This document shows, piece by piece, positions 1,012-4,802 of a DNA stretch of 7,023 bases (its first letter is position 1; each line of letters begins with the position of its first letter). Both the position numbers and the translations under genes were made by a program. The DNA comes from Escherichia coli (GTDB lineage Bacteria > Pseudomonadota > Gammaproteobacteria > Enterobacterales > Enterobacteriaceae), in NCBI RefSeq assembly GCF_003334785.1, contig NZ_QOWV01000037.1; one strand, given 5' to 3'. Under the pieces are notes generated by a model. That model saw only the letters and a program-made list of their open reading frames with translations. It ran no database searches and had not been told where the DNA came from.

Positions 1012-1040
1012 TTGCGTGACTGCCTTGCTGTTAATAGAAT
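1012..1040 (+). promoter_or_regulatory. Putative sigma70 promoter of agn43/flu (TTGCGT, 17-bp spacer, TAGAAT)
   Basis: TTGCGT at 1012-1017 and TAGAAT at 1035-1040 with a 17-bp spacer. The predicted transcription start falls at about 1046-1048, on the first GATC site, as expected for agn43. Confidence 0.5.
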
Positions 1041-1044
1041 AAAA

Positions 1045-1082
1045 CGATCGATAAAACAGGTATCGATCGTTACTATCGATCG
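1045..1082 (+). promoter_or_regulatory. Phase-variation switch of agn43: three Dam GATC sites within the presumed OxyR operator
   Basis: GATC at 1046-1049, 1065-1068 and 1078-1081, each inside a CGATCG palindrome. A near-repeat TATCGATCGTT occurs twice. Three clustered GATC sites just downstream of the -10 are the known hallmark of the Dam/OxyR-controlled agn43 switch. Confidence 0.75.
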
Positions 1083-1273
1083 TTTATAGTGGTTAATGGC
1101 CTGCGAAAAGGCAGTTGAATCTCTTCATCATGCAGAACGGAATTGCACACAACGGACTGATACTTCTCTGGCGGATGAGAGAGGGGAAGCATTTATGTCC
1201 GGGAAAAACCACTTTATCTGACCATGCTGTTTTGTACCTGCCGGTATCCACATTTGTGGGTACCGGCTTTTTT
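1047..1273 (+). ncRNA. agn43 leader RNA, possibly equivalent to the IsrC small RNA, ending at the leader terminator
   Basis: Defined only by the predicted promoter/start at about 1047 and the strong intrinsic terminator at 1240-1273. In K-12 a small RNA is annotated between yeeP and flu. Boundaries are inferred, not observed. Confidence 0.3.
1240..1273 (+). terminator. Rho-independent terminator/attenuator hairpin in the agn43 leader
   Basis: GCCGGTATCCAC (1240-1251) pairs with GTGGGTACCGGC (1256-1267), a 12-bp stem with one G-U pair and a 4-nt loop, followed by TTTTTT at 1268-1273. It sits about 25 nt upstream of the flu start codon. Confidence 0.7.
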
Positions 1274-1298
1274 ATTCACCCTCTGTAAGGAAAAGCTG

Positions 1299-2298
1299 AT
1301 GAAACGACATCTGAACACCAGCTACAGGCTGGTATGGAATCACATTACGGGCACCCTGGTGGTGGCCTCCGAACTGGCCCGCTCACGGGGAAAACGCACC
1401 GGTGTGGCGGTTGCGCTGTCTCTTGCTGCTGTCACGTCAGTCCCGGCACTGGCTGCTGACACGGTTGTACAGGCTGGAGAAACCGTGAACGGCGGAACAC
1501 TGACAAATCATGACAACCAGATTGTCTTCGGTACGGCCAACGGAATGACCATCAGTACCGGGCTGGAACTGGGGCCGGACAGTGAAGAAAACACCGGTGG
1601 GCAATGGATACAGAATAGCGGGATAGCCGGAAATACCACTGTCACCACAAATGGTCGTCAGGTCGTGCTGGAGGGGGGAACAGCCAGTGATACGGTTATT
1701 CGTGACGGCGGGGGGCAGAGCCTGAACGGACTGGCGGTGAACACCACGCTGATTAACAGAGGCGAGCAGTGGGTTCATGAAGGCGGGGTTGCCACCGGCA
1801 CAATTATTAACCGCGACGGTTACCAGAGCGTTAAAAGTGGCGGGCTGGCAACAGGAACCATCATCAACACCGGCTCAGAAGGCGGCCCGGATTCTGACAA
1901 CTCGTACACGGGTCAGAAGGTCCAGGGAACAGCAGAATCCACCACCATCAACAAAAATGGACGGCAGATTATCTTATCTTCCGGGATAGCCCGTGACACT
2001 CTCATTTACGCAGGTGGTGACCAGTCGGTACACGGAAGGGCTCTGAATACCACACTGAATGGCGGTTATCCGCACTTTCAGCTCCCGGGGTGACATGAGC
2101 ATGGGTACAGCCGCCGCCGGCAGTAACATGACGTTCTCACCGTCCCAGAATGGCACGTCACTGGACCTGCAGGCCGGACTGGAAGCCCGTGTCCGGGAAA
2201 ATATCACCCTGGGCGTTCAGGCCGGTTATGCCCACAGCGTCAGCGGCAGCAGCGCTGAAGGCTATAACGGTCAGGCCACGCTGAATATGACTTTCTGA
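1299..2298 (+). pseudogene. flu: Antigen 43 (Flu) autotransporter remnant with a large out-of-frame internal deletion
   Basis: AAGGA RBS at 1287-1291 and ATG at 1299. The N-terminus MKRHLNTSYRLVWNHITG...VPALA/ADTVV is the extended autotransporter signal peptide, followed by about 230 aa of passenger domain with the typical Gly/Thr-rich repeats. Ag43-like sequence ends at ...TTLNGGY (codon ending 2069), and the frame stops at 2091-2093. The extreme C-terminus of Ag43 (VIRTFSSRGDM...GYNGQATLNMTF) resumes in the +1 frame from about 2065 and ends at 2298. Most of the passenger and translocator domains are therefore missing. Confidence 0.85.
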
Positions 2299-2405
2299 TT
2301 ATACGGTATCCCGGAAATACGATTTCAGGAAAATTCATGCAGTAATGGGAAAGGACGCTCATTGCTGTTCACCGCAGTTCTGAATTATTGAATTTATAAA
2401 GGTGA

Positions 2406-4802
2406 ATGATGCACGAAAAGAACATCGCCCTGCTTTGTGATGAAGCCGACCGGCTTTTGCAACTGAATATCAATCTGCTCCGGCAAATGGTTGATGAGCC
2501 GGATGTGTTATCTGACAGTAAGAACGAAAACGGGCTGCTTTTTGATAAACGGAAAGCGCTGAAAAGAATTGAGGAGCTGGAGGGCGAACAAATCAAAACC
2601 GCCCGCAGGGAGATGGTGCTGGCTGTGGTCGGCACGATGAAGGCGGGCAAATCAACCACCATCAACGCCATTGTGGGGCAGGAAATTCTGCCCAACCGTA
2701 ACCGCCCCATGACCTCGGTACCGACATTGATCCGCCACGTTCCCGGAAAAACGGAACCGGTCCTCCATCTGGAACATATTCAGCCCGTCCGCAATTTATT
2801 AATCACACTGCAGGAAAAACTCGCCACCCCAGCAGGGCAGCAAGTCGCACAGTCCCTGCAGCAAACCGGGGATACCCGCGAACTACTGGATATTCTGGCG
2901 GATGATGTCTGGCTTAAAAATGAATACCACGGAGAAGACGAAATCTTTACCGGACTGGCATCGTTAAACGATCTGGTTCGTCTTGCTGCGGCAATGGGGA
3001 CTGAATTTCCTTTTGACGAATACGCAGAAGTGCAGAAACTGCCGGTGATCGACGTGGAGTTCAGCCACCTGGTGGGGATGGATACATGCCAGGGAACACT
3101 CACACTGCTGGATACCCCCGGCCCTAATGAAGCCGGACAACTGCAGATGGAAGTGATGATGCGGGATCAACTGCAGAAAGCCTCTGCGGTGCTGGCGGTG
3201 ATGGATTACACCCAGATGAACTCGAAAGCCGATGAGGAGGTTCGTAAAGAGCTTAATGCCATTGCTGACATATCAGCCGGCCGCCTGTTTGTGCTGGTCA
3301 ATAAATTTGATGAAAAAGACCGCAATGGCGATGGGGCAGATGCCGTACGCCAGAAGGTACCGGCAATGCTGAACAGCGATGTGCTGCCCTCCTCCCGCGT
3401 TTATCCTGGCTCCTCGCGCCAGGCGTACCTAGCTAACCGTGCGCTTCATGAGTTACAAAAAAACGGCACACTTCCTGATGATGAAGCCTGGGTCGATGAT
3501 TTTGTCAGGGAAGCCTTCGGTCGCATGAAAAAAGAATACGTCTGTAAAGACAGCGAACTGGTCACCGAAGGGGCGACAGACCTGTGGGAAGGCTCACTTA
3601 TCGATCAACTGATAACGGAAGTCATACTGAGTTCACACTCCAGAGCTGCGGCACTGGCGGTTGACTCTGCCGCCGCAAAACTGATGCAGAATGCAGAAAA
3701 TGTCAGCGAATATCTGTCATTACGCCATCAGGGGCTGCAACAAAGCATTCAGTCACTGCAGGCGCATATCTCCAGCCTGCTGGCAGATATCCGGGAAATC
3801 GCGGACTGTCAGAATAAGGTGACCGGTGATGTCAGAATGGCCATGGAGGAGATCGATGCTAAAACCCGGGAATTACTGACGGAGGTCTGCGCCTCACTGG
3901 AAGAGGAGCTGAATGCCTATTTCAGAAGCGGTAAACGCAAAGAACAGCAAATGCTGGAAGAAGAAGGCGCAGAACAACGCATATCGCAGCAGGGGATTAT
4001 TGGAAAAATTCGTGAGCAGTTTAGTGTCAGTGCCCCGGGCCATCATTCATGGAAACGAGACTTTGATCCGGACAGCCCCGAGATAAAATTCAGTGATCGC
4101 AGGGAAGCCCTTAAACTGATGACGCAAATCGAATCGACCGTGACTAGCCTGCACCGTGAGGCTGAAGCACAGTTCCGGCCTGAACTGGAAAAAATCGTCA
4201 GGGGTATCGAAACAGGTTTTCGTGGTACGGCCCTGTATGCCACAGAAAATATTGCCGGACGTATCAATGCCCGCCTGGAGGACGAGGGCTTCACTGTAAA
4301 AATCACTTTCCCGGCAGTCAGCCAGTTACAGACCAGGATCGCGGTAAAAACAAATCTGAGTGCGCTTATGGAGGAAAGAACTGAGACAGTCACCCGTCGC
4401 CGTCGGCAGAGTGGTTTCTGGGGAAAGATTTGTGGAGCGTTTGGCACCAGTGACTGGGGCTGGGAAAACTATAAGGAGAATGTGAGCCGCAGTGTGATCA
4501 ATATCAACTCGGTCAGGAAGGAAGTGATGTCACTGACCCGGGCATATTTCGGGGAGTTGCAGGCATCCATTGAGCAGAATATTAACCAGCCCGTCCGCCA
4601 GGAGATCGATGATTTTTTCTGTACATTCAGGGAAAAAGTCGAACAGCTACGTAACACACTCATTCAGAGCTCTGAAGATCATAAACGCGATCAGCAGGCA
4701 CAGGAGCAGCTTACGGAGCGCCTTCAGGCATTAAATGAAAGGGTTCCCGAGCTGATTACTGACAGTAAGGCGTTAAGGGAAGAACTGGAGACACTGCTGT
4801 GA
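2406..4802 (+). CDS. Bacterial dynamin-like protein (large membrane-remodelling GTPase)
   Basis: 798-aa ORF. G1 P-loop GTMKAGKS at nt 2631-2654 (aa 76-83); G3 DTPG at nt 3111-3122 (D236); G4 NKFD at nt 3300-3311 (aa 299-302). Long helical, coiled-coil-like C-terminal region rich in E/Q/L/R, as in dynamin stalks. AAAGGTGA at 2398-2405 upstream of tandem ATGs at 2406 and 2409. Confidence 0.9.
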   Translation: MMHEKNIALLCDEADRLLQLNINLLRQMVDEPDVLSDSKNENGLLFDKRKALKRIEELEGEQIKTARREMVLAVVGTMKAGKSTTINAIVGQEILPNRNRPMTSVPTLIRHVPGKTEPVLHLEHIQPVRNLLITLQEKLATPAGQQVAQSLQQTGDTRELLDILADDVWLKNEYHGEDEIFTGLASLNDLVRLAAAMGTEFPFDEYAEVQKLPVIDVEFSHLVGMDTCQGTLTLLDTPGPNEAGQLQMEVMMRDQLQKASAVLAVMDYTQMNSKADEEVRKELNAIADISAGRLFVLVNKFDEKDRNGDGADAVRQKVPAMLNSDVLPSSRVYPGSSRQAYLANRALHELQKNGTLPDDEAWVDDFVREAFGRMKKEYVCKDSELVTEGATDLWEGSLIDQLITEVILSSHSRAAALAVDSAAAKLMQNAENVSEYLSLRHQGLQQSIQSLQAHISSLLADIREIADCQNKVTGDVRMAMEEIDAKTRELLTEVCASLEEELNAYFRSGKRKEQQMLEEEGAEQRISQQGIIGKIREQFSVSAPGHHSWKRDFDPDSPEIKFSDRREALKLMTQIESTVTSLHREAEAQFRPELEKIVRGIETGFRGTALYATENIAGRINARLEDEGFTVKITFPAVSQLQTRIAVKTNLSALMEERTETVTRRRRQSGFWGKICGAFGTSDWGWENYKENVSRSVININSVRKEVMSLTRAYFGELQASIEQNINQPVRQEIDDFFCTFREKVEQLRNTLIQSSEDHKRDQQAQEQLTERLQALNERVPELITDSKALREELETLL

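Follow-up and report, generated by a model that had tools for sequence, protein, structure and literature searches.

A dynamin/RdcB/patatin operon behind agn43-type Dam/OxyR switches in Escherichia coli as a candidate phase-variable unit

A 7,023-nucleotide (nt) stretch of Escherichia coli DNA (NCBI RefSeq assembly GCF_003334785.1, contig NZ_QOWV01000037.1; hereafter the window, to which coordinates refer unless another locus is named) carries three genes directly downstream of the remains of an agn43 (flu)/cah autotransporter gene. They encode a dynamin-family GTPase (2409-4802), an RdcB-family protein (4799-5704, named after its RefSeq relatives) and a patatin-like phospholipase (5701-6771), and they lie on the plus strand, like all annotated genes of the window. 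On balance, we favor the reading that this operon is the distal part of a unit initiated at the agn43 promoter and would therefore be phase-variable, with expression probably confined to part of the population. The anatomy of the locus, the homology of the switches, the counts across genomes and a published precedent are all observations, and they are presented in turn below. The window represents a common module of E. coli islands in decayed form; the module consists, in order, of a YeeP-like GTPase gene, the agn43/cah switch, an IsrC leader with its terminator, cah, the dynamin/RdcB/patatin operon and a second terminator. The more interesting result, which lies beyond the region considered in an earlier note on this DNA, is a sister switch of the Dam/OxyR type that is fused directly to the same operon in many genomes.

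In the proposed mechanism, the agn43-led transcription unit would begin close to 1046. In ON cells, OxyR would be excluded from the switch, whose three GATC sites would be methylated, and some RNA polymerases would get past the leader terminator, continue through the cah remnant and the adjoining 107-bp gap, and transcribe the three translationally coupled genes as far as the terminator at 6791-6814. In OFF cells, OxyR would occupy the unmethylated GATC sites and the whole unit would be silent. The operon would then be ON in a heritable and reversible subpopulation. The earlier note had suggested that transcription from the agn43 promoter, once past the leader, runs through the remnant into the operon. 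The anatomy fits that suggestion; the transcripts spanning 2094-2408, and their share of operon expression, are what we infer.

The agn43/cah sigma-70 promoter (1012-1040) consists of a -35 element, TTGCGT (1012-1017), a 17-nt spacer and a -10 element, TAGAAT (1035-1040). It scored 11.3 bits in a position weight matrix (PWM) scan, in which it served as internal control and ranked second best of about 35,000 positions, and the predicted transcription start lies near 1046. The predicted Dam/OxyR phase switch (1046-1081) contains three GATC sites (1046, 1065 and 1078) that overlap the putative OxyR-binding region, are located at +11, +30 and +43 from the -10 element and align column by column with those of K-12 agn43. 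The best match to the OxyR (Toledano) consensus, 13 of 20 positions at 1034-1070, spans the first two GATC sites; it equals the maximum found in the window, is not far over background, and marks a putative site. How Dam and OxyR act at the three GATC sites of agn43 is itself established (reviewed in PMC13337833). The GATC region was also flagged as terminator-like on both strands (1043-1071 and 1064-1082), a signal that we read instead as the palindromic OxyR/GATC site.

The switch is followed by the agn43 leader RNA, the equivalent of IS102/IsrC (1044-1280), which matched the full Rfam model RF00124 (positions 1-206) with 74.9 bits against a gathering score of 46 (E = 1.5e-11). Relative to the Rfam model, the match contains two internal insertions (41 versus 35 nt and 63 versus 35 nt), and the leader is about 253 nt long in the window compared with about 222 nt in K-12. 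Since isrC of K-12 is annotated from the G of GATC-I to a point 28 nt short of the flu ATG, the corresponding ends in the window are a start near 1046 and an attenuated 3' end near 1271. The leader intrinsic terminator (1240-1273) has a 12-bp stem with 8 G-C pairs followed by T6; its hairpin (1240-1267; -23.5 kcal/mol) coincides with the K-12 IsrC 3' end, and we take it to act as an attenuator. All that is left for the window switch to control is IsrC, the truncated autotransporter fragment described below and possibly the dynamin operon.

The gene behind the leader, which the earlier note had called a flu remnant, is indeed a remnant, and comparison with the locus of the enterotoxigenic E. 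coli (ETEC) strain TW10722 identified it as cah with an out-of-frame internal deletion. Positions 669-2068 and 2065-6953 of the window match two separate parts of the TW10722 locus at 99.9-100%, and 1850 bp of cah are missing between them (4155-6004 of our TW10722 region, L002). The deletion junction (2065-2068) shows a 4-bp microhomology, GTTA. The Ag43/Cah frame that opens at 1299 matched NF033177 on residues 1-258 (E = 4e-151), but as 1850 is not divisible by three, the junction shifts the frame, which stops at the TGA at 2091-2093, leaving a 264-amino-acid (aa) N-terminal fragment (1299-2093). The last 204-230 nt of cah, encoding the end of the beta-barrel, are kept in another frame (2069-2298) up to the natural stop TGA at 2296-2298. 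An ATG at 2095, 2 nt after the frameshift stop, is in the frame of the Cah C terminus; re-initiation there would produce 67 aa of the beta-barrel, with ribosomes staying on the RNA as far as 2298. The exact deletion junction was absent from all 5426 complete E. coli genomes searched. An independent cah deletion with the operon retained was found in the complete genome HNSQ2209 (L001 8231-8948). Its left breakpoint corresponds to window position 1539, its right side is 75 bases longer, and switch, leader and operon are intact.

Between the cah stop and the dynamin gene lies a gap (2299-2405) of 107 or 110 bp, depending on whether the dynamin ATG is placed at 2406 or 2409. The two ATG codons are adjacent (2406-2411), and the 798-aa open reading frame (ORF) starts at 2406. 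In RefSeq relatives, the dynamin start is annotated either at the position of the second ATG (797 aa; L001 and L002) or one codon earlier (798 aa; L003 and L004), and the Shine-Dalgarno-like AAGGTG at 2398-2403 suits the second ATG better. The earlier note had seen neither a convincing terminator nor a convincing promoter in the gap, and both impressions held in our scans. On the plus strand, the consensus scan of 1299-2408 returned no terminator-like site and no sigma-70-like site. Two weak hexamers that had been pointed out, TTGCTG at 2362-2367 and TATAAA at 2395-2400, are where the note placed them, but they do not form a promoter together, because they are 27 nt apart rather than 16-18 and because TATAAA coincides in part with the ribosome-binding region 5-8 nt ahead of the dynamin start codon. 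The best PWM site in 2094-2408, CTGATT (from 2295) with a 17-nt spacer and TACGAT (ending at 2323), scored 7.5 bits, a value reached by 48% of shuffled sequences. The single hairpin of the gap (2339-2368; -13.7 kcal/mol) lacks a U tract, and the folding of 2280-2420 is ordinary (z = -0.96). A sigma-54-type site (TGG at 2346, TTGC at 2362), checked by eye, was ruled out by its wrong spacing. These absences carry little weight by themselves, since the lack of a signal in 107 bp is near the chance expectation of scans that return about 1-1.5 sites per 1.7 kb over both strands.

More telling is what is present: a strong terminator in the leader and another behind the patatin gene, and none between. 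On the plus strand, the only terminators found were the leader hairpin and the post-patatin hairpin (6791-6809, followed by T5); the scan gave no terminator-like site on that strand between 1299 and 6790, nor did it give one between the cah ATG and the dynamin ATG of intact TW10722. Thus, the operon lies on the same strand as agn43, behind a short gap, with no intrinsic terminator after agn43, as would be expected of an agn43-led operon. The agn43 promoter is also the only promoter-grade site upstream of the operon on the plus strand, the maximum of 7.5 bits in 1299-2408 being at chance level.

The arrangement is not peculiar to the window. We surveyed 5426 complete E. coli genomes, counting a query stretch as present when at least 80% of it was matched. 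The operon (2050-7023) was present in 2440 of them, the cah-gap-dynamin junction (2180-2520) in 635, and a second junction, in which a switch without flu adjoins the dynamin gene, in 1981 (about 37%). As 1981 and 635 together account for about all of the roughly 2500 operon-bearing genomes, nearly every copy of the operon lies behind one of two homologous switches. The 635 native cah-dynamin junctions also rule out that the gap is a product of the cah deletion. Flu-only loci such as that of K-12 are homologous to the window only up to 2298-2302. The gap sequence shows 0-3 differences across L001, L002 and L005. We considered whether its conservation marks a functional element. Window and UMNK88 share the gap at 100% identity, against 93.7% for the operon, but with mosaic divergence over the locus, and with the HNSQ2209 gap changing at the pace of its neighbors, we found this conservation uninformative.

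The flu-less loci, among them those of O55:H7 RM12579, E06, the sequence type 131 (ST131) strain 751, the CFT073 pathogenicity island PAI-aspV and E. albertii, consist of the GTPase gene, 217 bp and then the dynamin gene, with no flu. Within the 217 bp lies the sister switch (L003 5875-5943; also in L004, L006 and L008-L010, and at 20700-20790 on the minus strand of L013). Its promoter is again TTGCGT, a 17-nt spacer and TAGAAT (11.3 bits by PWM), its GATC sites are at +11, +29 and +42 from the -10 element, and its match to the OxyR consensus, 16 of 20 positions, is centered on the GATC sites, whereas no position of the window exceeds 13. The sister-switch leader, of about 100 nt, has no terminator-like hairpin with a U run. 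In an alignment of two agn43 regions and six dynamin-type regions (eight sequences, E. albertii included), the invariant columns included all three GATC sites, CTTG of the -35 region and TAATAGA.T of the -10 region; the spacer was variable over much of its length. The sister switch is predicted to be phase-variable, and no account of it turned up in the literature that could be searched; an ST131 methylome paper does not list it. A comparison of the dynamin protein against one genome per species returned E. albertii only, with exact peptide patterns that are too strict to judge other genera. The CFT073 aspV copy (L013 15015-21315) is of the switch type and has two extra small downstream genes, five genes in total; it keeps the three GATC sites. 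A frameshifted dynamin gene is present in CFT073. In O157:H7, an IS1203 transposase is annotated under the operon-region match.

Published data bear on the read-through question. In the agn43-yeeR-irmA locus, reverse transcription-PCR (RT-PCR) across the junctions and 5' RACE (rapid amplification of the ends of cDNA) revealed one polycistronic, OxyR-repressed mRNA (Moriel et al. 2016, PMC4807369), and an insertion behind agn43a abolished the downstream IrmA (PMC4807369). Read-through beyond agn43 is therefore known behavior. Another data set concerns the commensal strain MP1 and the hyxRAB genes. As background, hyxR is under a FimX-dependent invertible element and is hence phase-variable. When an MP1 lysogen was compared with its cured derivative by RNA sequencing (RNA-seq), dynamin/RdcB/phospholipase operons were the most strongly differing genes between these two isogenic lineages in every medium, they differed together with hyxRAB, and a five-gene dynamin cluster was reported as up-regulated in a prophage-dependent manner (PMC12922286). 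The authors proposed phage defense for the operon and did not consider phase variation (PMC12922286). We infer that the joint difference of operon and hyxRAB may have arisen because the two clonal lineages were in different phase states. Our literature searches found no paper linking the operon to OxyR, Dam or phase variation. Together, the agn43-yeeR-irmA precedent, the flu-less switch loci and the MP1 data strengthen the idea of read-through from agn43.

Several points weigh against agn43-driven expression of the operon. The leader terminator is strong, most transcripts may stop at about 1271, and the product of termination is annotated in K-12 as the small RNA IsrC. Because of the frameshift, about 310 nt (2094-2405) may go untranslated, a state that could permit polarity through Rho; over 2044-2281, the C/G ratio (1.0-1.13 in 78-nt windows) gives no clear rut-like bubble, a profile with which Rho action is still compatible. 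In strain EC958, the effect of oxyR fell from 121-fold at agn43 to 12.9-fold at irmA (PMC4807369). In enteroaggregative E. coli (EAEC) 042, irmA has its own promoter, and deletion of the flu promoter was without effect (Prieto et al., PMC9431211); the outcome can depend on locus and strain. The gap is conserved no more than its surroundings, which tells nothing either way, and many real promoters in acquired, AT-rich DNA escape consensus and PWM scans.

In one alternative, the operon would have its own, unrecognized promoter in the cah 3' end or the gap. Read-through from agn43 would then be negligible, most agn43 transcripts stopping at the leader terminator or being ended by Rho. The strength of that terminator speaks for such an arrangement, as does the AT-rich gap, weak non-consensus promoters being common in AT-rich DNA. 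A parallel exists in EAEC 042, where irmA lies downstream of flu and is independent of the flu promoter (PMC9431211). The best candidate for a dedicated promoter is the CTGATT/TACGAT pair (2295-2300 and 2318-2323), with a start near 2330, which is kept in L001. However, its score is the chance-level 7.5 bits given above, the consensus scan of the region was empty, and four-fifths of the operon copies have no flu, only the agn43-like switch upstream, and lack the gap sequence. Absent from those copies, the gap is not the general promoter of the operon, and overall we regard a dedicated promoter in the window as unlikely.

We consider it improbable that the operon is essentially silent in the window allele, a decaying island remnant whose deletion would be neutral, with agn43 transcription ending at the leader terminator or, through Rho polarity, in the untranslated remnant. 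Decay is visible: cah is inactivated in the window, about 310 nt are without an obvious translated frame, and related loci show the CFT073 dynamin frameshift and the O157:H7 IS1203 transposase annotation. In contrast, the three genes and their catalytic motifs are intact, with ratios of nonsynonymous to synonymous substitution rates (dN/dS) of 0.10-0.26; the ATG at 2095 could allow re-initiation in the C-terminal frame; and the remnant has no strong C-over-G bubble. Finally, an assembly artefact, in which the 1850-bp deletion would be a collapse in the repetitive Ag43 passenger domain (TIGR04415 matches) and the real locus an intact cah-dynamin arrangement, has in its favor those repeats and the exact junction in 0 of 5426 complete genomes, but is very hard to credit given a clean junction with only 4 bp of microhomology and the independent cah deletion with operon retained in complete genome HNSQ2209, and it would leave the read-through question unchanged for the intact locus.

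Initiation at the agn43 promoter followed by read-through thus stays our preferred account of the window. A wider reading, which we put forward tentatively as a serious possibility slightly less likely than not, is that the module, found in about 45% of the complete genomes of E. coli, serves bet-hedging at the membrane, possibly against phage, under Dam/OxyR phase variation, that Ag43/Cah is an optional passenger in the same switched unit, and that the "prophage" effect in MP1 is an effect of phase state. If this were true, cells would turn on aggregation and the dynamin module jointly, and a module of dynamin-like GTPase and phospholipase, ON in only a fraction of cells, would be present in nearly half of all E. 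coli strains. Operon-carrying strains include ST131, CFT073, O157:H7 and ETEC lineages as well as E. albertii. A large non-adhesin cargo would join the short list of Dam/OxyR phase-variable loci of E. coli, and it would become understandable why a potentially costly, membrane-active system should be expressed by some cells only. Transcriptomes of clonal derivatives could then call the operon "regulated" from phase state alone, of which the MP1 study (PMC12922286) would be a likely example.

The operon genes are intact and under purifying selection, also among flu-type loci. Against three other alleles, dN/dS was 0.10-0.26 overall, with 0.20-0.26 for the dynamin gene and 0.10-0.17 for the RdcB-family gene. 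The dynamin-family protein has the GTPase motifs G1 (GTMKAGKS at residue 75), DTPG (235) and NKFD (298). It scored 556.8 bits against NF007368, the NCBIfam equivalog of RdcA/CrfC, below the curated cutoff of 1146, and is therefore a paralogue of RdcA, not an orthologue. The GTG start of the RdcB-family gene overlaps the dynamin stop (GTGA), and the start of the patatin gene overlaps the RdcB stop (ATGA). The patatin-like protein gave an RssA-type NCBIfam match, and the motifs that define such phospholipases are intact: the oxyanion-hole GGGxxG (GGGAVG at residue 13), the nucleophile GxSxG (GASIG at 40) and the catalytic Asp of DGG/DGA (DGG at 223). PADLOC returned no credible defense-system assignment for the operon; against the Eleos profiles, the dynamin reached 17.5 bits with LeoBC and no significant stretch, and the RdcB-like protein had no match.

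Divergence of the dynamin gene is strongly mosaic. It rises to 48 differences per 100 nt around 3965-4060 (window 3465-4060 compared with L005, L003 and L006), and between the window and L005 it is 0-1 differences per 100 nt over 2165-2965, a pattern suggestive of recombination and of a central hypervariable stretch in the protein. The intrinsic terminator after the operon (6791-6814; 8-bp stem followed by T5; -17.5 kcal/mol) is conserved in L003 at 10390-10406. It is bidirectional in form, as a minus-strand hairpin with a T run (6791-6773) abuts the plus-strand hairpin. The match to TW10722, 99.96% identical over 2065-6953, ends before the last 70 bases of the window (6954-7023), and the region after the operon is AT-rich and varies between islands.

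At the other end, the YeeP-like GTPase gene (ORF 55-927; RefSeq relatives are annotated as "GTPase family protein") is located upstream of the switch in all arrangements examined. Its product gave Era/Der-type NCBIfam matches and weak PADLOC matches to LeoBC (E = 7e-8) and LeoA (E = 4e-5), which make it distantly dynamin- or Leo-like itself.

Known dynamin systems resemble the operon in part. Like the anti-phage systems Eleos (LeoA/LeoBC) and DynA of Bacillus subtilis, it encodes a dynamin-family GTPase on a defense-rich island, adjoining type I restriction-modification genes, but by profile score it is not a member of Eleos. The RdcA/RdcB pair (YjdA, also CrfC, and YjcZ), which activates DgcE, likewise combines a dynamin-like GTPase with an RdcB-family gene through an overlapping stop and start (Pfiffer et al. 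2019, PMC6510439); the dynamin of the operon shares about 30% amino-acid identity with RdcA (PMC12922286). The rdcAB pair has no third gene, whereas the operon adds the patatin-like phospholipase and sits on mobile islands.

Among phase-variable systems, the Salmonella gtr and opvAB loci combine GATC-containing OxyR sites with envelope-modifying genes that affect phage sensitivity. ON and OFF subpopulations form there through OxyR and Dam (PMC7708049). These loci have four GATC sites with alternative OxyR half-sites and other cargo, and they are not homologous to the window switch. The canonical agn43 (flu)/cah switch is the same as that of the window, with TTGCGT, 17 nt and TAGAAT followed by three GATC sites in the putative OxyR site, and at 99.9-100% identity to the TW10722 region upstream of cah the switch itself does not differ; what is new is the cargo, and Cah is inactivated in the window. 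The flu-less sister switch shares with agn43 the promoter hexamers, a nearly identical GATC spacing and an OxyR-like palindrome, and its loci share with the window the flanking GTPase gene and the operon. However, it is only 73-77% identical to the agn43 region and has no IsrC, terminator or autotransporter gene.

The nearest precedent is agn43-yeeR-irmA of uropathogenic E. coli (UPEC), which resembles the window in having same-strand genes directly 3' of agn43. The downstream genes there are yeeR and irmA rather than dynamin, RdcB and patatin genes, the intergenic sequence is unrelated, and co-transcription was demonstrated there by RT-PCR and RACE. Our hypothesis is that read-through in the window represents a further instance of the agn43-yeeR-irmA kind.

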